33,115 nt of DNA from Escherichia coli (GTDB lineage Bacteria > Pseudomonadota > Gammaproteobacteria > Enterobacterales > Enterobacteriaceae), in assembly GCF_003334385.1 (NCBI RefSeq), contig NZ_QOWN01000049.1; one strand, written 5' to 3'. A model generated the notes under the pieces. That model saw only the letters and a program-made list of their open reading frames with translations, searched no databases and was not told where the DNA came from. Made by a program: the position numbers and the translations under genes. Position 1 is the first letter of the stretch, and each line of letters opens with the position of its first letter. Shown one piece after another: positions 12,230 through 23,950 of this stretch.

Positions 12230-12646
12230 ATGAAGAGCGTTAAGGGACTTTCAGATATTCAGGACTTCTTTAACTGGATGTGGGCGGTGGATCCCCTGCT
12301 GGCTTCCCGCCTGAACAACTGGCACGACTACTACCGCCGCGCCTGTAAACAGGCCGCCCGCAGCATCACCACATACGGGGATTTCTCCTTCACCGTTGAC
12401 GGTCGTTACCGCGTGGACGTGAAAGGTGACGGTGATGGCTTTGGTTTATTTCACATCAACGGCACCGACAGTACCGCCATCAGCTGGTCATCGTCAGAGA
12501 TGGCACTGGTTCTGGAAATGACAACCCACAGCGTGGCCGTGAAAGGCATATACACCGCAGAAGACTTTATCGGTGAATACCAGCGCCTTCTCGTGCTGTA
12601 CCGCGCGGCGTTTCAGGAGGTCACTGGCGGGGAGTACGACGCATGA
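12230..12646 (+). CDS. Hypothetical protein (138 aa) preceding replication gene A
   Basis: ATG 12230 with ggagg RBS; stop overlaps the A start (ATGA). Confidence 0.6.
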   Translation: MKSVKGLSDIQDFFNWMWAVDPLLASRLNNWHDYYRRACKQAARSITTYGDFSFTVDGRYRVDVKGDGDGFGLFHINGTDSTAISWSSSEMALVLEMTTHSVAVKGIYTAEDFIGEYQRLLVLYRAAFQEVTGGEYDA

Positions 12647-15156
12647 GTGACCGCAATGCACAGCTGGCGTACCCGTGGAACGCACCGCTACCGGTTATCG
12701 ATCCTGAAACGTTCGGCAGAGCACAACCAACCGCATTACGCCAGGCCATTCAGAGCTACATCAACGAGGACATTCGCATTGATGCCAGACTGGATGAAGA
12801 AACCGTCTCCTTCCTGACAAACACAGACGAAGGCAAGCGAATTAATTCGCATCTTCACCACGACGAAGAGCGTCGGGTCAGACTGGAAAAACTGGCGAAG
12901 CACAAACGCGAGAATCCGCCCACGGTGGTATCGGAAGCCATGGCAGAACTTCGCGCCCTGCCCTCGTTTCTTGCCAGTCCGCTCATCCGGGACCTGGCTC
13001 GCCTGAGCCGCAAACAGGAGAGCGCACGCCGGGAAGGGCTTAAGAATAACAGCGCATATGCGGCGGATAACTTCGTTCGTCATGGGCTGCGTGCCCGCCT
13101 GAAACGTATCGCCCGTGTGAATGAACGCTTTGCCACCCCGGCCTTTAAGGCCACCGCCGCCCGCGAACGGCTGGATGAACTGCTTATACTGCCGCAGCTG
13201 AGCCGTGACGAAATCCAGCACCTTGCCACCCTGACCGCCACCGCGTTTTCCGCCGCACTGGAGCGCGCATGTGATGAGATCATCGAAAAGACCGGCAGGG
13301 GTGACGATGACCTGTTCACCTGGTTACTGACCTACCAGTCACTGGCACACATGGCGTTAAAACTGGGTATCACGCCACCCTGCTGGCCGTCGCTGGAAAT
13401 CAGGCCAGACCGCCGCACCGCCCCCAACCCGGAACGGGTGCCGGGTGCGGTCATGCGCCTTTCCTGTGCGACATGGTGGAACAGTCAGTTAAGACACCTC
13501 CGGGACATCTGGCGTGAAGAGCTGTTACGCGCCGCAGGTCTGGTGTCACGTAAGACATCGGTATATATCAGCCATGAAGCGTTACTGGACTGGCGCGAAA
13601 AACGCCAGCGCACCCGCGATTTTCTGAAGGCCTGGGACATCGAGAACGAAGAGGGAGAACGGTTCAGCCTTGAGGATATCTACTGGGCAGGTCTCTCTAA
13701 TCCGCGTAACCGCCGTAACGAGATGATGACCTGCGCCCGGGGAATGGAGCAGGTCGCCGAAGCACGCGGCGACGTGGCGTTTTTCGTCACCGTCACAGCC
13801 CCTTCCCGTTTTCACAGCGTGAACGATGACGGCAGTCTGAACCCGAAATACTGCGGGGCAACGGTACGCGATGCCAGTGATTATCTGGTTTACCGCTTTT
13901 TCGCCGCCGTCCGCAGGGCCATCGACAAGGCCGGGCTGGGCTGGTACGGCGTGCGCACAGTGGAGCCCCACCACGACGGTACACCGCACTGGCACATGCT
14001 GGTATTCACCAGCCAGGAAAACGAAGCCCGTATCACTGAAATCATGCGCAACGCCGCCATCAGGGAGGACCGCGCAGAGCTGGGTGATGATATCTCCCCG
14101 CGTTTTAAATGCGAAAAAATCGACCCGGCAAAAGGCACACCGACAAGCTATATCGCGACCTATATCGGTAAGAACCTGGACGCCAGCGCCTTCATGGGAA
14201 ATGACCCGAAAACCGGCAAACCTTACATCGATAAGGAATCAGGCAAAACCATGGCCGAAACCGTGGAGAACGCCATCGGCTGGGCAGGCCTTCACCGCAT
14301 CCACCAGTTCCAGTTCTTCGGTATCCCGCCCCGCCAGGTATGGCGCGAACTCCGCCGCCTTGCCGGGCAGATGGCCCGTAACCCGACTGCCCCACAGCGT
14401 CTGGACCATGACGACATTGACGCCATACTGGCCGCCGCCGACGTGGGATGTTTTGCCACCTATATCACCCGCCAGGGTGGTGTGCTCATTCCCCGCAACA
14501 CGTACCTGGTCCGCACCGCATACGAAACTGCCGAAGAGGCCAACGACTACGGCGAATTCCCGCAACGCATTTACGGCGTCCGCGCCCCGTTACTCGGGGA
14601 GCGCTACACCATATGCACCCACCCGGACACCTGGAAACTGGTCAGACGTAAGCCGGAAAACGAAGACCGCACGGACGAGGGTTTTGACGTTGAGTGCGGC
14701 TTTGCCGCACCTTGGACTCGTGGCAATAACTGTCCCCATGATGAAAAAACAGACACCGGAGAGGGTAAAACCCCACCACCGGAAACCAGGAAAGAACAAA
14801 AACTGGTCGTCCCGGGAGGTGATTTGGGTGAGTGGTTAAGGTCACTGACCCCCACAGAGCGAAAACAACTCACCAGGCAGCTGAAAGATGCGCCATCTGA
14901 CACAAAAACCGTGAAAACCGGCGGCCCCACCACGCCCGATGACGTCATACATGTGCGTACAGCATTGCCGCTGACTGACGTCACCACCACCGTAATCAAG
15001 TCGGCACTGAGCGCGACGGGCGAGGAGCTACACAGTGGCGCAGCACTTTCCGTACACAGAGGTGCACGCGTTCGCCTGCCTGACGGGCGGATTGTGCACT
15101 GGGATGAGAAATCACGAAGCCTGGTGGCAGCAGATCAACCGGAGGTGAACCCATGA
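12643..15156 (+). CDS. A: Rolling-circle replication initiation endonuclease, P2 gpA family
   Basis: 837 aa with HUH motif (TPHWHMLVF) and paired active-site tyrosines (YIATYIGK) characteristic of P2 A / phiX174 gpA-type nickases. Confidence 0.9.
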   Translation: MSDRNAQLAYPWNAPLPVIDPETFGRAQPTALRQAIQSYINEDIRIDARLDEETVSFLTNTDEGKRINSHLHHDEERRVRLEKLAKHKRENPPTVVSEAMAELRALPSFLASPLIRDLARLSRKQESARREGLKNNSAYAADNFVRHGLRARLKRIARVNERFATPAFKATAARERLDELLILPQLSRDEIQHLATLTATAFSAALERACDEIIEKTGRGDDDLFTWLLTYQSLAHMALKLGITPPCWPSLEIRPDRRTAPNPERVPGAVMRLSCATWWNSQLRHLRDIWREELLRAAGLVSRKTSVYISHEALLDWREKRQRTRDFLKAWDIENEEGERFSLEDIYWAGLSNPRNRRNEMMTCARGMEQVAEARGDVAFFVTVTAPSRFHSVNDDGSLNPKYCGATVRDASDYLVYRFFAAVRRAIDKAGLGWYGVRTVEPHHDGTPHWHMLVFTSQENEARITEIMRNAAIREDRAELGDDISPRFKCEKIDPAKGTPTSYIATYIGKNLDASAFMGNDPKTGKPYIDKESGKTMAETVENAIGWAGLHRIHQFQFFGIPPRQVWRELRRLAGQMARNPTAPQRLDHDDIDAILAAADVGCFATYITRQGGVLIPRNTYLVRTAYETAEEANDYGEFPQRIYGVRAPLLGERYTICTHPDTWKLVRRKPENEDRTDEGFDVECGFAAPWTRGNNCPHDEKTDTGEGKTPPPETRKEQKLVVPGGDLGEWLRSLTPTERKQLTRQLKDAPSDTKTVKTGGPTTPDDVIHVRTALPLTDVTTTVIKSALSATGEELHSGAALSVHRGARVRLPDGRIVHWDEKSRSLVAADQPEVNP

Positions 15157-16143: not shown

Positions 16144-16461
16144 ATGCCAACACAGGTTGCAACAGAGGGACGACTGGCAGCAGACCCGAACACAAGGAGA
16201 ACAACCAAAGGAACCAACGTCACAACGGCACAACTGGCGGTATCACTACCCTGCCATGGCGCAGAACAGCCAACCACAATGTGGCTTTACCTTATTTCAT
16301 TCGGGAAGCAGCACGAAGAACTGGCAAAACACAGAAAAGGCGATCTGATTCTGGTGCACGGAAACTTGCAGGTAAACAGGTATCAGGACAAGTACGGGCA
16401 ACAGAAAGAGAGCTGGCAGTTGCTGGCGCAAAGCATTATCAGCTCAAGAACCGGGCGATGA
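16144..16461 (+). CDS. SSB-like OB-fold protein (105 aa, lacks C-terminal acidic tail)
   Basis: Aligns in pattern to the N-terminal OB fold of bacterial SSB (G-L..DP..R....G..V....LAVS...W....FGK..E.....KG....V.G.L....Y.D..GQ); gggaga RBS; followed by an intrinsic terminator. Confidence 0.6.
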   Translation: MPTQVATEGRLAADPNTRRTTKGTNVTTAQLAVSLPCHGAEQPTTMWLYLISFGKQHEELAKHRKGDLILVHGNLQVNRYQDKYGQQKESWQLLAQSIISSRTGR

Positions 16462-16471
16462 CTTCACGCAT

Positions 16472-16511
16472 GTTACCCTCAGCAGCGAGGGTAACACAGG
16501 ATTTCTTTTTT
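16472..16511 (+). terminator. Rho-independent terminator ending the early/replication operon
   Basis: Perfect 9-bp stem gttaccctc / gagggtaac with a 6-nt loop, followed a few nt downstream by a T-tract (tttcttttttt). Confidence 0.6.
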
Positions 16512-17047
16512 CAGTCAAACCGAAATCGGCCGCTTGTCGCGTATGCATAGGTGACCACCGCACCCAGCGCATTCACACGCTTCTTCACATAAATCACATT
16601 ACCATCCTGATAGTCACCGTATGGGTAGCAAATAAATATTGTTTTTTGCAAATCAGGATCATCAACAAATGCCCCTGAACAACTTTTTGAGCTACCGCGA
16701 CTGTACTCATAGGGAGCGGAATAGAATGAATCTTCACCCGGAAGAAAATATATCAGCGTAACCAGGAGGGTAAACAGAATCATCCAGGTAAGAAGGCACA
16801 TACCCGAAAAAAACTTAAGATACGATGTAACCCCGGTAAATTTAGACCGATCAACCAGGTTCTTTTTCAACAGGCACAGTGAGGCAAAAACCGAAAGCAC
16901 CACAGACACTGAAACAAGGCAGTTTGTCGTGAACGAATAAAGGTAGGTAATTCTGTAAACATCGTTTCGCCACCAAATAAAAAGAAAAATCCCCCCCAAA
17001 ACAGAAAGCGTGACAAAAGTTAAATAAGGATATGAGTAATTTTTCAC
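16511..17047 (-). CDS. Hypothetical multi-pass membrane protein (AT-rich cargo gene at the tin/old position)
   Basis: Low-GC ORF with three hydrophobic helices (YLTFVTLSVLGGIFLFIWW, CLVSVSVVLSVFASLCLL, MCLLTWMILFTLLVTLIYFL) and a ~75-aa C-terminal soluble region; start uncertain (GTG 17047 after ggtgag, or ATG 16801). Confidence 0.4.
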   Translation of the reverse strand: MKNYSYPYLTFVTLSVLGGIFLFIWWRNDVYRITYLYSFTTNCLVSVSVVLSVFASLCLLKKNLVDRSKFTGVTSYLKFFSGMCLLTWMILFTLLVTLIYFLPGEDSFYSAPYEYSRGSSKSCSGAFVDDPDLQKTIFICYPYGDYQDGNVIYVKKRVNALGAVVTYAYATSGRFRFD

Positions 17048-17601
17048 AGTTCTCACCCGGCAATACACCACTGATTCAGACAGATGATTATCATCACCAC
17101 CCACCCCCAAAAATCGCAAGATAAAAAATGCACAAAAGCGCACGAAATTGCACAATTTTTCTTATGTGTTTCATCCCCATTCAGCCCAGTAACGGCGCTG
17201 GCTGAGGCCGGTTTGCACGGTGCACGAAAAACGAGGCAATTGCAGTGCGCAGGCGACGAGGGAAGGGCGCCCGAATTGAGGGGTGGAAGGCAGGTTGCTT
17301 TATTTGGGGTCGTATTGCGCGTGATACGCACGCAGTGAAGCCGGTTCTGAAAAAACCACACCGAAACAGAGTCAGAAAAACAGGCCGCCAGAATGCGTCT
17401 GGTTGAGTTTTACGGGGTCGGGATTAAATGCGGAAACATCACACCGCAGGCATGACGCGAAAAAGAGAAAAACCACAGCAAAACATAATGTTAAATGTTA
17501 TTGATGAGTTGAGAAGCGAAAGGTGTATTGCGTTGACAGAGCTGGAGAGTCGGGGCATAAATTTTTTATGCCCCGGCGAAGCAGCCGACAAGCGAAGCGC
17601 G

Positions 17602-18645
17602 TCAGCTGGCGCCATCCTGAAGCAGCGAATAGGGATTAAAGCGCATCACTTCAACCCCAAGCCATTCATTGACATGCTTCATCGCTTCCATGACCGGTTG
17701 CAACTCGTTGATGAAAAATACCCTCGCCGCCTTCTCAACGTCACCGAACGCCGCGTTCCCGTCAGGCATTGCCCCCATCAGCTGAGGCGGTACACGGTGA
17801 GCCGCAAGGATATCGTCGCGGGCACTCCCCTTGATGTTAAGGAATTCGTCCTTCGCGGTGATTTGCTGGAACGGCAGTATTTGCACACCATCCTTGCCGC
17901 CACCTGGCGCGTGCAGAAGGATATTGCGGAACGCCCCCTTGCCACGGGATTCCGTGAGTGTTTTCTTGATGGCTTCCACGCTTTCAGCGTTTGCCTGGGC
18001 GGCACCAACATAGACAATGCACCCGGCATGTGAACCGTTGTCATAGTAGAGCTTGCGGAACGTATCCGCTGAGTTCGACAGACTCACCGACAGCAACCCA
18101 CCGATATACTCCGGCATCCCGTAGATTTCCTGGTTGATATCGGGGTTCAGAACGTGGCACACAGCCCCCTTACGGAAAGCAAATTCAGAACCATCATCAT
18201 TGAGGTACCAGTACGTATCGAGATCACTGCCCCGCCGCGTGTATTTCGCCAGCGCAGGACGAAGCGCAATGGGTTCACCGAACTTGTTGCGGCGGACTTC
18301 AAGATAGGCATTACCGAACACGAACCAGTCCAGCGCAAACGCGGAAAACGCCTGGCGGGACAGTAGCGGATGAGGAACAAAGCAGCCGTTCAGGGCATTA
18401 CGCTTAAAATACAGGGCCGACTGGTGCCATGATGCACAACGCGAGGCGCGAGCAATGGCATTCCAGTCCATGGGGGTGTCATAGTAGCGGCCATTATCGG
18501 CGCACGACATGTTATCAAGCAGATCAAGACGGCTTGCTTCATAAGGACCGTCAAACGTGAAAGCACTGAGTGACGGCGCTGATTTCAGTGCATCAGCCAG
18601 TGAGCCCGTGCCGCGCTTTCCGGTGTATTTTTTACGTTTACTCAT
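17602..18645 (-). CDS. Q: Portal protein, P2 gpQ family
   Basis: 347 aa, size and position matching P2 Q; immediately followed on the same strand by the large terminase. Confidence 0.88.
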   Translation of the reverse strand: MSKRKKYTGKRGTGSLADALKSAPSLSAFTFDGPYEASRLDLLDNMSCADNGRYYDTPMDWNAIARASRCASWHQSALYFKRNALNGCFVPHPLLSRQAFSAFALDWFVFGNAYLEVRRNKFGEPIALRPALAKYTRRGSDLDTYWYLNDDGSEFAFRKGAVCHVLNPDINQEIYGMPEYIGGLLSVSLSNSADTFRKLYYDNGSHAGCIVYVGAAQANAESVEAIKKTLTESRGKGAFRNILLHAPGGGKDGVQILPFQQITAKDEFLNIKGSARDDILAAHRVPPQLMGAMPDGNAAFGDVEKAARVFFINELQPVMEAMKHVNEWLGVEVMRFNPYSLLQDGAS

Positions 18646-18650
18646 TGTGT

Positions 18651-20384
18651 TCAGAACTCCATTGCAAAGCCACGATTATCCTCACGCTCTGCGCCGATTG
18701 GCTCATTGATAACAGCAAGCATGGTTGCCCAGGCGAGATCACCATGACTGACACCGCGTGAGCGGTCAGTGTCATAGGTGATATAGCCGCCGGGCGTCTG
18801 TATTTTTCGCACCGATGCAAAGGCCTGTACCAGGTCGCGCTCGCTGCGGTCATACTCCCAGCGTCCGGCACGGACCACCTGAAGCATCTTCATGACCAGC
18901 GCCCGCTTTGAAGCGATATTAAAGTTATACGGAACAGCCAGGGGGAAGAATTTTTTCACTATCTGATAAACCCCTTCCCCGTTCCCGCCGGTGACATCAA
19001 TCCCGATATGCTTCACATTGTATTTTTGGGTGTACTCCTCAATCAGGGCGGCCTGCTGTTCAAACTCCATGCCCTGAACCCTGACGGTTTCCACCGTACG
19101 AAAACGCCCACCGGCAACAAGGGGTGGCACGCACACCGACAGCGCCCCGCAGTCCCCCTTCCCGCTGCTGCCGTTGGCGTCATACCCGAGCCAGACTTCC
19201 CTCACCCCCATAGGGCGGACAGCAAAAGGCTTCCAGTCCGGCCATTCGTCATAGCCATCAACACCGCACCCGACGAGCGTATTCAGACTGAAGGCTGCCT
19301 CACCATCACGGACAAATTCGCACATGTACAGATTGCGAAATTCACTTTCTGTATTTTCGCCGCGAATATCATCAATACTGGTGAACTGCCATCCGTTAGC
19401 GACAGCATCCTCAATGGTGACAATCTGCCGCCACGTTTTGTCGGGAAAGAGCACGCCCCTCTTCAGGTGAGCATGTGAAACATCAAACTCACTGCGTTTT
19501 GAGCGTGGCTGTTCGCTGTTCCAGCGGTCCCCCGTCCAGAACTGATACGCCTCATGCATTTCCCCCGACGGCGTCGAGAAGTAAGTGCGCGTAAGCCCTT
19601 CCAGGGTCGCCATTGCCCCGGCAACCTTCCTGAGGTTCACAAAGTTACTGACCCAGAAAAATTCGTCGAATTTAAGATGACCGGTATAGGACTGCGCGGT
19701 GGCAGCTGACGTACCGAGGAAGTGCAGCTCCGCGCCGTTGGACAGCACGATCTTGTCGCCCCCTTTCAGCTCAACATCCACTTCCAGCGCCGCCTGCTGA
19801 ATAAAATGCTTGAACTGATACGCCTGACGACGGGAGGCGGACAAAAATATCTGGTTGCGCTGATACCCGGCGGAGACGTCATCACGCAGTGCATCAAGGA
19901 GCGCCTCGCGCGCAAAATACCAGGTCGCACCAATCTGACGCGACTTCAGGATCATACGGTTGCGGTGGTGACGGTTTTCGTACCATTCACGTTGATGCCA
20001 CGCCAGCGTCGGGAGGATTTTTTCACGAAGCGCGACAATCTGTTCTTCGGTGAAGTGATTTTTCAGTCTGCGTTTACGGGGCTTTTTACCGGAAACGGCC
20101 TGTTCTCCCTGACCGTCATTCAGTTTTTTCAGCTGGCGCGTGAGAAGGTCAATTTCCTTAAAATCGCTGCCGCTTTTCTCTGTTTTTGTGGTGAGCTGGA
20201 TCAGGCGCGCATCAATGGACTGGGTGACCCGCTGGATCGGAGGTGTGGCATCCCACTCATCGCGTTTTTTCCATGAGTAAATCGTGTTCTGGCTGATCCC
20301 CATCAGTTGCGAGATTTCCGCAGGTGTGTACCCTTGCCAGTAAAGTTGTCTTGCCCTTATGCGGACAAATGCATCCTGAATCAT
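18651..20384 (-). CDS. P: Terminase large (ATPase) subunit, P2 gpP family
   Basis: N-terminal HTH-like segment (YTPAEISQLMGISQNTIYSWKKRDEWD) and size matching P2 P; ATG 20384 has an aggggg RBS; the in-frame ATG at 20429 (592 aa) is the alternative. Confidence 0.88.
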   Translation of the reverse strand: MIQDAFVRIRARQLYWQGYTPAEISQLMGISQNTIYSWKKRDEWDATPPIQRVTQSIDARLIQLTTKTEKSGSDFKEIDLLTRQLKKLNDGQGEQAVSGKKPRKRRLKNHFTEEQIVALREKILPTLAWHQREWYENRHHRNRMILKSRQIGATWYFAREALLDALRDDVSAGYQRNQIFLSASRRQAYQFKHFIQQAALEVDVELKGGDKIVLSNGAELHFLGTSAATAQSYTGHLKFDEFFWVSNFVNLRKVAGAMATLEGLTRTYFSTPSGEMHEAYQFWTGDRWNSEQPRSKRSEFDVSHAHLKRGVLFPDKTWRQIVTIEDAVANGWQFTSIDDIRGENTESEFRNLYMCEFVRDGEAAFSLNTLVGCGVDGYDEWPDWKPFAVRPMGVREVWLGYDANGSSGKGDCGALSVCVPPLVAGGRFRTVETVRVQGMEFEQQAALIEEYTQKYNVKHIGIDVTGGNGEGVYQIVKKFFPLAVPYNFNIASKRALVMKMLQVVRAGRWEYDRSERDLVQAFASVRKIQTPGGYITYDTDRSRGVSHGDLAWATMLAVINEPIGAEREDNRGFAMEF

Positions 20385-20451
20385 TGACGCCCCCTTGCTG
20401 TTTGATCTCAAGAGTAAACGCCCGCGCATTCATCCAGGTATCCGGTGCCAT

Positions 20452-20541: not shown

Positions 20542-21378
20542 ATGGCAAGTAAAAACGCGCCAGTACGGAAAAAATTCCGCGTCGCCGTCTCGGGCACCAC
20601 CATCGACGGGCGTGAGATTTCGGGGCTGATGTTGCGTCAGGCCGCTGAGAATTACGACCCGGAAGTGTGGGGGTCACGGGTGAACGTGGAGCACATGCTT
20701 TCACGTATGCCATCCAGTGAATTCAGTGCCGTGGGCGATGTGATTTCACTGTCCACCGAAGAAATCACGGAAGGCAAGCTGGCCGGTCGCACCGCACTGT
20801 ATGCCGAAATAGAGCCAACCCACCGTATGACGGAGATGTTGCGAGACGGCAAGAAAATCTACTCAAGCATTGAGCTTGAACCCAACATTGATGCCGTTGG
20901 CGGCCCTTACGTAATTGGCCTGGCAATGACCGATACCCCGGCAAGTCTCGGCACTGAACGACTGAAGTTTGCCGCCCAGCAGCGCGCCAGCATCATGCAG
21001 TTCAACAGCCGCAGCGGTGAGCCAGTCATGTTCACCGAATGTATGGAAGCGGAACTCGCGGCCTCCGTACAGGACAGCACCGAAGAAAGCCAGAAATGGT
21101 TTTCGCGCGTCATGGCGCTCATCAGTAAAACCCGTGACACGGACAGCGAGCAGTTCGCTCACGTGCGCGAAGCCGTCGAGAGCATTGCCACGGAACAGGC
21201 CGGCCTTCTGGATCGCTTCCATGCGATGGAAGAGCAACAGCGCAGTGATAAGGCATCACTGGAAACCCTGACCCGCGAACTGACTGAACTGAAGGCGCAG
21301 CTGAAAACCGAAGATGCAGACAAGGAACAGCGCTTTGCTTCAACCGGTGGCAACAGCCACGCCCTGGCTGATTTTTAA
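20542..21378 (+). CDS. O: Capsid scaffolding protein, P2 gpO family
   Basis: 278 aa; position between terminase and major capsid; acidic coiled-coil-like C-terminus; ggggattt RBS. Confidence 0.88.
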   Translation: MASKNAPVRKKFRVAVSGTTIDGREISGLMLRQAAENYDPEVWGSRVNVEHMLSRMPSSEFSAVGDVISLSTEEITEGKLAGRTALYAEIEPTHRMTEMLRDGKKIYSSIELEPNIDAVGGPYVIGLAMTDTPASLGTERLKFAAQQRASIMQFNSRSGEPVMFTECMEAELAASVQDSTEESQKWFSRVMALISKTRDTDSEQFAHVREAVESIATEQAGLLDRFHAMEEQQRSDKASLETLTRELTELKAQLKTEDADKEQRFASTGGNSHALADF

Positions 21379-21393
21379 CAGAGGAACAAAATC

Positions 21394-22488
21394 ATGGGAA
21401 ACCGCTTAACGCTTTCTCGCGAAGGCCGCAGCAATCTTGAGGCCTATCTTGCACGCCAGGCTGAACTGGCCGAAACCACCGTAGAACGACTGGGGAAAAC
21501 CTTCAGCGTTGATCCGGCTGTTCATCAGAAGATGGAAAACGCCATCAAAGAGAGCGACGAGCTGCTGAAAAGAATCAACAGCATCGGCGTTGACGATCAG
21601 GAGGGTGAAAAAGTCCTGGTGAATACCAGCGGCCCCATCGCCAGCACCAACTCAACCAGTGACGGCGTGAAGCGACGCAATCCCGCTGACGTCTCTGATC
21701 TGGCATCACGTCGTTATCGCTGCGAACAGGTGAACTACGACACCTTCATCAGCTACGCACAGATTGACGCGTGGAGCAGCCAGAAAAACTTCCAGCAACT
21801 GCTGAGTGCACAAATCACCCGACAGATTGCACTGGACCGTATCATGATTGGCTTTAACGGTGAGTCGCACGCCATCATCTCCGATCGTTCTGCCAACCCG
21901 AAACTTCAGGACGTTAACACCGGGTGGCTGAAACACATCCGTGAACACGCCACGACGCGTGTCGTGAAGGCAATGACGCTGACCCGTCGCGATCATGAAA
22001 ACAAACTGGTTGCAAAAGGCGACTACGGCAACGCTGACGCGATGGTTAACGACATTCGCTCTTCCATACTGGATGAGTGGCACAAGGACGCCCCGGATCT
22101 GGTTGTTGTCATGGGCCGCAACCTGTTCAACACGCTGCGTCTGCCTATGATTAACGCCATCAGCACCACCAACCCGAACACGGAGCTGGTCGCCGGACAG
22201 CTGATTACAGCCTCCCGCACCATTGGCGCGCTGCCAACCTTCTTTGCGCCGTACTTCCCGGACGATGCCATGCTGATCACGTCGTTCAGCAACCTTTCGG
22301 TCTACTTCCAGAAAGGGTCACTGCGTCGCTTCATCCGTGAAGAGCCGGAGTACAACCGTATCGCCACCTACCAGTCCATGAACGACTGCTACGTGGTGGA
22401 AGACTACGGCAAGTGCGCACTGATTGAGGGCATTTCTTTCGCCGGTGAAGATCCGGAAGACAAGAAAGAGGCAGAAGCACAGGCGTAA
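21394..22488 (+). CDS. N: Major capsid protein, P2 gpN family
   Basis: 364 aa; blocks such as DPDLVVVMGRNLF, PYFPDDAMLITSFSNLSVY and YVVEDYGKCALIEGI parallel P2 N as recalled; aggaac RBS. Confidence 0.9.
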   Translation: MGNRLTLSREGRSNLEAYLARQAELAETTVERLGKTFSVDPAVHQKMENAIKESDELLKRINSIGVDDQEGEKVLVNTSGPIASTNSTSDGVKRRNPADVSDLASRRYRCEQVNYDTFISYAQIDAWSSQKNFQQLLSAQITRQIALDRIMIGFNGESHAIISDRSANPKLQDVNTGWLKHIREHATTRVVKAMTLTRRDHENKLVAKGDYGNADAMVNDIRSSILDEWHKDAPDLVVVMGRNLFNTLRLPMINAISTTNPNTELVAGQLITASRTIGALPTFFAPYFPDDAMLITSFSNLSVYFQKGSLRRFIREEPEYNRIATYQSMNDCYVVEDYGKCALIEGISFAGEDPEDKKEAEAQA

Positions 22489-22537: not shown

Positions 22538-23347
22538 ATGCTGACACCGGCACAACGATACCTTCAGCGCGTGATGGCGCATCATCGGGCTGATCCATTC
22601 AGTCGCGAAGAGCAGCGAACACGAACGGCACATGAACAGGTTCTTCACCAGTTACGCCTCGCCCAGTTGCAGCTGAAGGGCGTGCAGTCGAACATCGCGA
22701 AAGCGGAGCTGAAGAAGCACCTGATACCGAATTTTGAAGGCTGGATAGACGGCACGCTGGCAGGCGACAGCGGACGCCAGGACGAAGTCATTACCACCAT
22801 GATGGTGTGGGCAATTGACTGCCGGGATTATCCGCTGGCACTGCGTATCGGTGAGTACGTCATTCGTCACCGGCTGGCACTGCCGGACAACTTCGGGCGC
22901 GATTCGGCGACCGTGCTCACCGAAGAAATTGCCGAAGTTGTGCTGACAGAAGCCGCCACCAACAGCGAAACCGACTTATCCGGCTATATCCGTATGCTGG
23001 ACGAGCTGGATGCACTGGTTCACGACCAGGACATGCCGGATCAGGTTCGTGCAAAACTACATAAGGCGCGGGCATTTTCACGGCGCGCATCAGGCAGTAC
23101 GGAAGACATGACTGTGTCACTTGGTCTGCTGCGTGAAGCTATGCGCATCAATCCGGCAGCAGGCGTGAAGCGTGAAATCGCCACGCTGGCCAGAAAGGTA
23201 TCAAAGGTTCAGCCGGAACCGGAAAAACCGGCAGAAGAGAAAAGTAAATCGAAAGCAACATCAGGGCGCAAAAAGCCGACTACAAAAGCGACGGCCAGAA
23301 AAGCCACGAAAAAAACCGCCGCAAAACCGTCGCGCAAGGCGACCTGA
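22538..23347 (+). CDS. M: Terminase small (endonuclease) subunit, P2 gpM family, with Lys/Ala/Thr-rich C-terminal tail
   Basis: Position and ~245-aa core consistent with P2 M; caggag RBS; C-terminal ~50 aa are low-complexity basic (KSKSKATSGRKKPTTKATARKATKKTAAKPSRKAT). Confidence 0.8.
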   Translation: MLTPAQRYLQRVMAHHRADPFSREEQRTRTAHEQVLHQLRLAQLQLKGVQSNIAKAELKKHLIPNFEGWIDGTLAGDSGRQDEVITTMMVWAIDCRDYPLALRIGEYVIRHRLALPDNFGRDSATVLTEEIAEVVLTEAATNSETDLSGYIRMLDELDALVHDQDMPDQVRAKLHKARAFSRRASGSTEDMTVSLGLLREAMRINPAAGVKREIATLARKVSKVQPEPEKPAEEKSKSKATSGRKKPTTKATARKATKKTAAKPSRKAT

Positions 23348-23455: not shown

Positions 23456-23950
23456 ATGAGCATGGTAGCCAGACCCCGTGTGAACGACGCCACGGATGAC
23501 ACGACAGACACCGACGACGGAGAAGCGCGCATCAGTACAGACGCGTTCTGGCCGGATATCGTGCTGAAAGAGCTGCGCCTTGCCATGCGCATTCCCGGGC
23601 GCACCACCACGTCACGTCTGCTGCATTCGGCCACCGAAGCTGTGGCACACGTAACGGCAGAGCTTGACACCTGGAAACAGAAACAGGAGGCGGCGGGACG
23701 GTCGACACTGGCGGACGTTCCGGCAGCACACATCAACGGTGAGAGCGTGAACGTGCACCGGTATCGACGCGCGGTGTATGCACTGACCCGCGCGGGCGTT
23801 CTTGAGCGTTCGCGGGATGTGGACACCACCGACAAAGGTGATCGCCGGGCCGATGCGCTGGACATGCAGATTGAAGATATGTGGCGCGATGCACGCTGGG
23901 CAATATCCGATATTCGCGGCGTCAGACGGATTTATGCGGAGCTGATTTAA
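23456..23950 (+). CDS. L: Head completion/stabilisation protein, P2 gpL family
   Basis: 164 aa at the gpL position; ggaga RBS; stop overlaps the X start. Confidence 0.8.
   Translation: MSMVARPRVNDATDDTTDTDDGEARISTDAFWPDIVLKELRLAMRIPGRTTTSRLLHSATEAVAHVTAELDTWKQKQEAAGRSTLADVPAAHINGESVNVHRYRRAVYALTRAGVLERSRDVDTTDKGDRRADALDMQIEDMWRDARWAISDIRGVRRIYAELI

Follow-up and report, generated by a model that had tools for sequence, protein, structure and literature searches.

The cohesive-end (cos) sites of phages P2 and 186 and of the satellite P4 are the described systems to which the locus analysed here can be compared most directly. In these systems, cos is flanked on one side by the cargo hotspot with which the early region ends and on the other by the portal gene, and cognate P2-family terminase genes are nearby. 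Passages of PMC3931495, PMC2231350 and PMC9122126 attribute to Ziermann and Calendar 1990 a conserved 55-bp region and 19-nt 5' cohesive ends. In the case of P4, a passage of PMC9122126 describes packaging by the P2 terminase, with only the core cos signal common to P2.

The intact cos junctions of P2, 186 and P4 were rebuilt from the ends of their sequence records, and box offsets were counted from the first base of the cohesive end, which is annotated in P2 and 186 and is the record start in P4. Counted in this way, TGCAT boxes lie at -123, -111 and -101 in P2 and at -124, -111 and -101 in both 186 and P4, and a proximal TGCATTAAAA lies at -29 in each of the three. The common architecture thus consists of a phased triplet of TGCAY boxes (about -123 to -101), one TGCAY-AAAA box near -30, and a core that is GC-rich and begins GG.GA.G.GGG. 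These phased boxes are a feature derived here from P2, 186 and P4, and no description of them was found in the available passages of the literature on P2-type cos. Contiguous identity between P2 and P4 extends from -29 to +26, i.e. 55 bp with the proximal box as its left edge, which agrees with the 55-bp cos region given in passages of PMC3931495 and PMC2231350. The sequence between the distal boxes is unrelated in P2 and P4.

The window, i.e. the whole 33,115-nt stretch of Escherichia coli DNA that was analysed (contig NZ_QOWN01000049.1), shows a candidate site in the same place, with the same architecture, the same beginning of the core and likewise P2-family terminase genes nearby. The ends are annotated in P2 and 186, whereas those in the window are predicted from sequence.

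Genes around the gap

The window starts with host genes, homologues of dmsC, dmsB and dmsA (99-4036), which are followed by a prophage. About 300 bp separate its integrase gene (4336-5343, - strand) from the start of the dmsA homologue (1592-4036, - strand), so that the attachment site should be in 4037-4335; no tRNA genes were found anywhere in the window. A repressor-like gene and then a methyltransferase gene stand between the integrase and a P2 A-type replication endonuclease (12643-15156), after which small genes, including a MarR-like regulator and an SSB, lead to a cargo ORF (16511-17155 as the longest ORF, - strand). On the other side of a non-coding gap, the packaging genes encode the portal protein (Q, 17602-18645, - strand, stop codon 17602-17604), the large terminase subunit (P, 18651-20429, - strand), the scaffold (O, 20542-21378, + strand), the capsid protein (N, 21394-22488, + strand), the small terminase subunit (M, 22538-23347, + strand) and the head completion protein (L, 23456-23950, + strand). 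The order of replication endonuclease, cargo, gap, portal, large terminase, scaffold, capsid and small terminase is the P2 layout, which is described in the same form in a passage of PMC9122126.

The portal protein, both terminase subunits, the scaffold, the capsid and the head completion protein all gave full-length PHROG matches, thus the packaging genes are intact, and the RefSeq gene annotation of sister prophages agrees with that of the window. The tail end of the prophage lies beyond the window, whose right end falls within the baseplate genes. The lineage also occurs in E. coli chromosomes, with 98% identity across the gap, and strains DETEC-S792 and SW071611 are examples of its carriers. 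The closest sequenced phage relatives are P88-like phages (Xuanwuvirus), phiT5282H (Novemvirus) and Klebsiella P2-family phages, to which the packaging-gene DNA is only about 67-69% identical.

An earlier note on this DNA had described a non-coding gap of about 440 bp beside Q that should hold cos by P2 synteny. The gap from the longest cargo ORF to the Q stop measures 446 bp and its flanking genes are those that the note had assumed; with the shorter RefSeq start of the cargo gene the gap is about 554 bp. With the right-end accessory (cargo) region on one side, the portal gene on the other and P2-family terminase genes adjoining, the gap has the location of a P2-type cos.

Three further coding features of the window can be described here. 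The cargo ORF occupies a place in the defence hotspot, which extends from the replication gene to cos, and its RefSeq version is shorter, with 178 aa. Its sole match is PHROG 1416, a family of unknown function, over the C-terminal 90 residues, and PADLOC defence and Pfam annotation gave nothing significant for it. A 656-aa protein (25516-27486, + strand), encoded between the lysis genes and the tail/baseplate genes, matches PHROG 143 (unknown function) and is annotated as DUF6645 in RefSeq sister prophages; to our knowledge, P2 has no gene at the equivalent position. Finally, an 84-aa ORF (17084-17338, + strand) spans the TGCAC boxes and the cos core. It is called as a hypothetical protein by RefSeq in some sister genomes (e.g. 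L004) and is uncalled in others (e.g. L009), it is disrupted in the chimeric prophage described below, and it had no defence-model match. We therefore rejected it as a gene and regard it as a probably spurious call.

Boxes and core of the putative cos site

The starting point for the cos reading was a 19-mer, GGCGACGAGGGAAGGGCGC at 17252-17270, which had been proposed as a weak match to the P2 cohesive end. The P2 sequence given in that proposal is indeed the annotated cosL of NC_001895, GGCGAGGCGGGGAAAGCAC, and the count was correct: 13 of the 19 positions match and six differ, the right half of the 19-mer being unrelated to that of P2. Taken alone, this match is no better than chance. Sites with at most six mismatches to the P2 end number 9 in the window, compared with 8.85 expected from first-order Markov simulations, about 15% of simulated 446-bp gaps hold at least one such site, and no site in the window has three or fewer mismatches. 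Similarity to the P2 end was therefore dropped as evidence for cos. What supports the cos reading instead is positional homology, i.e. the boxes and the junction.

Counted from 17252, the window has TGCAC at -123, CGCAC at -113 and TGCAC at -103, close to the phased positions near -124, -111 and -101 in the known sites, and a proximal TGCACGAAAA at -31. The distal boxes (17129-17160, + strand) begin at 17129, 17139 and 17149, hence 10 bp apart, and a T-run (17156-17160) comes after them. This distal block, TTGCACAATTTTT, is near-invariant among 22 diverse clade representatives, and it is kept whichever cargo gene adjoins. Further downstream lies a small GC inverted repeat (17181-17206, + strand) with the arms TCAGCC (17181-17186) and GGCTGA (17200-17205), and each relative has an equivalent short GC hairpin of differing sequence. 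This element contains the motif GGCGCTGGCTGAG (17194-17206), at -58, to which GGCGCGGTCTGAG at -56 in P4 corresponds when counted by hand, a 2-nt offset like that of the other boxes. The proximal boxes (17214-17231, + strand) comprise a TGCAC at 17214 and TGCACGAAAAA at 17221-17231, the latter at -31 from 17252, and GTGCAC(A/G)AAAA is invariant across the clade alignment.

The core region (17247-17270, + strand) consists of the left flank GCGCA (17247-17251) and the predicted 19-nt cohesive end. In the window, the equivalent of the 55-bp region of P2 and P4 would be 17221-17277. This segment shows the same architecture, and both its TGCAY-AAAA box and the GG.GA.G.GGG that forms the left half of its core are retained. 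It has neither the inter-box sequence of P2 nor the right-flank YGCGCGC, and its core is identical to that of P2 at about 13 of 19 bases. Several other differences from the known sites could be identified: the boxes read TGCAC in the window and TGCAT in P2, 186 and P4, the proximal spacing is 31 nt in the window as opposed to 29 nt in these three, the left flank is GCGCA rather than GGGCG or GGGCA, and cos is about 330 bp away from the portal stop, compared with about 165 bp in P2 and 186. To the right of the core, a G-rich box, GAGGGGTGG (17278-17286, + strand), begins 8 nt after the 19-mer. Boxes of the (A/C)(A/G)GGGGGT type occur at the same offset elsewhere in the clade, and the counterparts are GACGGTGGTG in P2 and GAGGTGGCG in 186. 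Because P4 does not have this box, its role is uncertain.

By our own rough estimate, the chance that four pentamers each fall at most 2 nt from the expected offsets is of the order of 1e-7, and common descent of the cos module is the obvious explanation. The retention of the boxes in P4, their 10-bp phasing and the analogy with cosB of phage lambda, which holds binding sites for the small terminase, suggest that the TGCAC boxes are putative terminase-binding sites.

To extend the comparison to the family level, 80 loci encoding relatives of the portal protein (mostly about 70% identical) were collected, the DNA downstream of each portal stop was extracted, and 64 distinct regions could be aligned at a common junction, GCGC(G)CA^GG-Y-GA-S-G-N-GGG (the caret separates left flank and core). 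Across these 64 unique regions the flank and the adjoining left half of the core are invariant or nearly so, and P2, 186 and the window agree with the junction at every invariant position. The pattern GCGCRGGYGASGNGGG occurs once in the window, at 17247-17262, where 0.03 occurrences would be expected. In a gapped alignment of the 22 diverse representatives together with P2, the blocks follow one another in the order triple box, variable GC hairpin, GTGCAC(A/G)AAAA, variable spacer of about 13 nt, core and G-rich box. The P88-like (Xuanwuvirus) and phiT5282H-like (Novemvirus) phages and Klebsiella P2-family prophages have the same box-hairpin-box layout with a GCGCGCA^GG junction.

Regarding the right half of the core, three types were found among the 64 unique regions. 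The P88-like core, GGTGACGGGGGAACAGCCC, is present in 37 (plus 2 single-base variants) and the Klebsiella-like core, GGCGAGGCGGGGGAGCAAG, in 19 (plus 2 GAGTAAG variants), one or the other being the core of the P88-like, phiT5282H-like and Klebsiella elements, whereas the core of the window, GGCGACGAGGGAAGGGCGC, is present in 3. The Klebsiella-type core equals that of P2 at its first 12 bases and resembles the reported SEN4/SEN5 ends, ggcgaggcgggggaacgag. From these alignments, the core of the window appears as a rare third sequence type in a clade that otherwise has a P88-like or a P2/Klebsiella-like core. It was found in 29 of 5426 complete E. coli genomes, in which the module is 88-100% conserved. 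The second copies inspected in E. coli genomes, in a search for a satellite with this cos type, proved to be further prophages of this lineage and no satellites.

Within the P88 group itself, P88_4B11 (L001, 75-100) differs from P88 (L008, 1326-1350) by a deletion of about 5 nt in the right half of the core, which reads GGTGACGGGGGGACAGGTTTCAGGGGG in the former and GGTGACGGGGGAACAGCCCGCGTTTCAGGGGG in the latter. If this deletion is real, the sequence or length of the overhang may not be fixed within the P88 group. Compared with P2, constraint may therefore be weaker on the right half of the core and perhaps also on the length of the overhang.

Altogether, the gap beside the portal gene very probably holds the cos site of a P2-family prophage, judging from its sequence features. 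The synteny argument is strengthened by the conserved box architecture and the invariant junction, and the equivalence of 17252-17270 to the cohesive end is supported, as GCGCGCA^GGYGASGNGGG falls exactly on the 19-mer. The alignment with cos regions of P2-like phages, which had been suggested as a check, thus finds in the window both the box architecture of P2, 186 and P4 and the junction.

Spacer and hairpin between the putative cos site and the portal gene

Between cos and the hairpin block lies a variable non-coding spacer (17287-17538). In two sister prophages with 92-100% identical packaging proteins (L009 and L010) about 110 bp of it are absent, and P88 is unalignable there. As P4 and P2 have nothing in common to the right of +26, the spacer is probably not part of cos. 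The additional 110 bp or so of the window (17405-17538, compared with 9230-9270 in L009) show two short motifs in common with the preceding unit, GGTTG..GGGGTCG and AAAAACCACA.C.AAACA. These two short stretches are all that units 17285-17405 and 17395-17540 have in common. The extra spacer may be an old, decayed duplication.

The conserved block after the portal stop (17539-17601, - strand) contains the palindrome CGGGGCATAAA-TTT-TTTATGCCCCG at 17551-17575. A hairpin at 17552-17574, about 30 bp from the Q stop, had already been pointed out, with no function assigned; it is real and in fact stronger, with two arms of 11 nt (17551-17561 and 17565-17575) that are 100% complementary around a 3-nt loop, 26 nt from the stop codon at 17602-17604. 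For the RNA, folding was predicted to yield -25.4 kcal/mol in portal sense (z = -2.85 against shuffled sequences) and -33 kcal/mol on the + strand (z = -4.57). An Rfam scan of 16400-17900 on either strand gave no match at E-values up to 1.

The obvious comparison is with the terminators tQ of P2 and tW of 186, which are GC-rich hairpins a few tens of nt after the portal stop on the portal-sense strand, like that of the window. In tQ and tW the hairpin is followed by a T-run (GGCGGCTTTTTT in P2, GGCGGCTTTTTC in 186), whereas the hairpin in the window has no U-tract, the tail reading ACTCTCCAG in portal sense and GCGAAGCAG on the + strand. It also differs from tQ and tW by a longer perfect palindrome, A/T-rich inner stem pairs (CATAAA/TTTATG) and the 3-nt loop. 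Thus, a GC-rich stem-loop stands directly after the last gene of the operon, as in an intrinsic terminator, and yet the U-tract is absent and a terminator scan did not pick the element up. For these two reasons we do not class it as a canonical intrinsic terminator, and it is only a positional counterpart of tQ and tW.

Hairpins at this position are common among the loci with portal relatives: of 51 unique tails, 44 carry a strong GC hairpin in the first 75 nt beyond the portal stop, and the U-tract is clear in 4 of these, weak in 2 and absent from 38. In the Klebsiella-clade loci (L069-L093), the first 40 nt after the portal stop hold a different hairpin of 11-14 bp, GGTACCGCACTGCC...GGCGGTGCGGTACC, where the U-tract is absent too. 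In our own reading, the differences between arms in this clade keep pairing through G-U on the portal-sense strand only, which suggests that this analogous hairpin is an RNA structure.

An alternative is that the palindrome acts as DNA, either as the binding site of a dimeric protein or as a linker in mosaic recombination. Its perfect symmetry and the absent U-tract would fit, as would its conservation, for the block of 63-68 nt (17539-17606) is 97% identical in the P88-like phages. Packaging-gene DNA of these phages is only about 68% identical to that of the window, the adjacent portal coding DNA is much more diverged than the block, and neighbouring coding DNA is in general only about 68-82% identical between lineages. 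Moreover, the sequence from cos to the block is highly variable, as at a mosaic joint. Covariation does not distinguish an RNA-level from a DNA-level role in this clade, since both arms are invariant. Against the alternative, post-portal hairpins recur in other clades with quite different sequences, some of them with canonical U-tracts, P2 and 186 annotate terminators after the portal gene, and the strand-specific G-U pairing in the Klebsiella clade favours RNA structure for the analogous element. As a whole, a DNA-level role is a serious but less probable alternative. Most likely, the palindrome at 17551-17575 is transcribed as a putative 3'-end hairpin of the late P-Q transcript, which it would terminate and/or stabilise by protection from 3' exonucleases.

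Predicted position of the ends and meaning of the site

The proposed course of packaging can be outlined as follows. After excision and replication, the phased TGCAC boxes of the cargo side would serve the terminase (M, 22538-23347, and P, 18651-20429) as recognition sites, and the enzyme would introduce staggered nicks at the core, GCGCA^GGCGACGAGGGAAGGGCGC. The resulting 5' cohesive ends would be GC-rich and about 19 nt long, and the virion genome would have the portal gene at its left end, as in P2 and 186. The top-strand nick is predicted between 17251 and 17252, with an uncertainty of 2 nt that comes from the proximal spacing of 31 nt compared with 29 nt in P2; the overhang of 19 nt is likewise a prediction. 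Overall, we consider it likely that a cos module of about 17129-17277 is cut at these nicks and that the hairpin forms the 3' end of the late P-Q transcript.

Sequence records were searched for natural ends at this position. Among nine IMG/VR contigs with the exact 19-mer, none ends at it, and a BLAST of the module against 50,697 phage records gave none that starts at the core. One record, that of P88_4B11, is cut inside the module. Its start lies 13 nt beyond the distal box block and about 75 nt left of the core, a position that corresponds to about 17174 in the window. This record has no terminal redundancy and no paper on it was found, nor was any literature found on cos in P88-like phages. 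We assume that its cut is arbitrary.

The P88_4B11 record could also be taken to mean that cos is in the gap but that the nicks fall elsewhere than at 17252-17270, i.e. near 17173/17174, or at the core with another overhang length. The variation of the right half of the core between types, the indel of P88_4B11 in that half and the proximal spacing of 31 instead of 29 nt could be read in the same direction. The start of that record, however, shows neither terminal redundancy nor a GC-rich sequence resembling a cohesive end and has no source paper, while GCGCGCA^GG.GA.G.GGG aligns with the nick sites of P2 and 186 both in sequence and in the offsets of four boxes, which makes displaced nicks quite improbable. 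About as improbable is a reading in which the TGCAC boxes are promoter or operator elements of the cargo or early genes and only the core matters for packaging. It is motivated by the distal TGCAT boxes of P2, which lie just upstream of the annotated old-tin transcript starts, and by the window, where the boxes lie just upstream of the cargo ORF on the - strand. Nevertheless, the boxes keep fixed offsets regardless of which gene adjoins them and how it is oriented: phiT5282H has a peptidase gene there, on the + strand and with a terminator of its own at the end, the chimeric prophage has a different cargo, and in P4 the boxes stand at the same offsets beside the psu gene. In addition, a promoter scan gave no sigma-70-like site over the boxes.

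That the 19-mer resembles a cohesive end by coincidence, in a lineage without cos packaging or in a defective prophage, would be in line with the chance-level 13/19 match and with the fact that only part of the prophage is in the window. The packaging genes are nonetheless intact P2-family genes, the cos architecture has multiple parts at the offsets of P2, 186 and P4, and the module is conserved in the 29 E. coli genomes, so that the probability left for this explanation is close to negligible. A further possibility extends the cos reading itself. Within the P88/Klebsiella-type clade, this lineage could use a third, hitherto undescribed cohesive-end specificity, with a terminase that reads TGCAC and not TGCAT, and the palindrome could be functional in its own right, as a protein-bound site or as a recombination linker that delimits the cos-cargo module. 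In this combined form we regard the idea as doubtful. Our preferred reading thus continues to be a P2-type cos with nicks at the core and a transcribed hairpin after the portal gene.

A natural chimera was observed at the predicted cos. The prophage L010 of E. coli S1-CAM-02-A (NZ_CP145707.1; 8880-9300, corresponding to about 17129-17270 of the window) encodes P and M proteins 100% identical and a Q protein 99% identical to those of the window, and its core and right flank are those of the window. To the left of a shared GCGCGCAGG, its sequence is P88-like with a different cargo block of three genes. The switch between the parents is inside GCGCGCAGG and consequently within about 9 nt of the predicted top-strand nick. 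This chimera fits the cos-adjacent hotspot of cargo exchange, for which the authors speculate in a passage of PMC9122126 that exchange is promoted by the cos ends. For this one case, homologous recombination within the short motif common to both parents would be an equally good explanation.

In conclusion, the feature is very probably a P2-type cos site with a divergent and rare core, of a kind that is already known. It is an expected feature in the expected place, and current understanding is unchanged by it. Its location fixes the physical ends of the virion genome, and in P2-like phages cos is the right boundary of the cargo (anti-phage defence) hotspot that extends from the replication gene to the portal gene. 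For P2-family prophages with diverged cores, the comparison provides a rule for finding cos: three phased TGCAY boxes about 100-125 nt upstream of GG.GA.G.GGG, together with a TGCAY-AAAA box about 30 nt upstream of it. The concerted difference between TGCAT and TGCAC suggests which bases set terminase specificity, and these bases bear on which helper phages could mobilise which satellites or cosmids.
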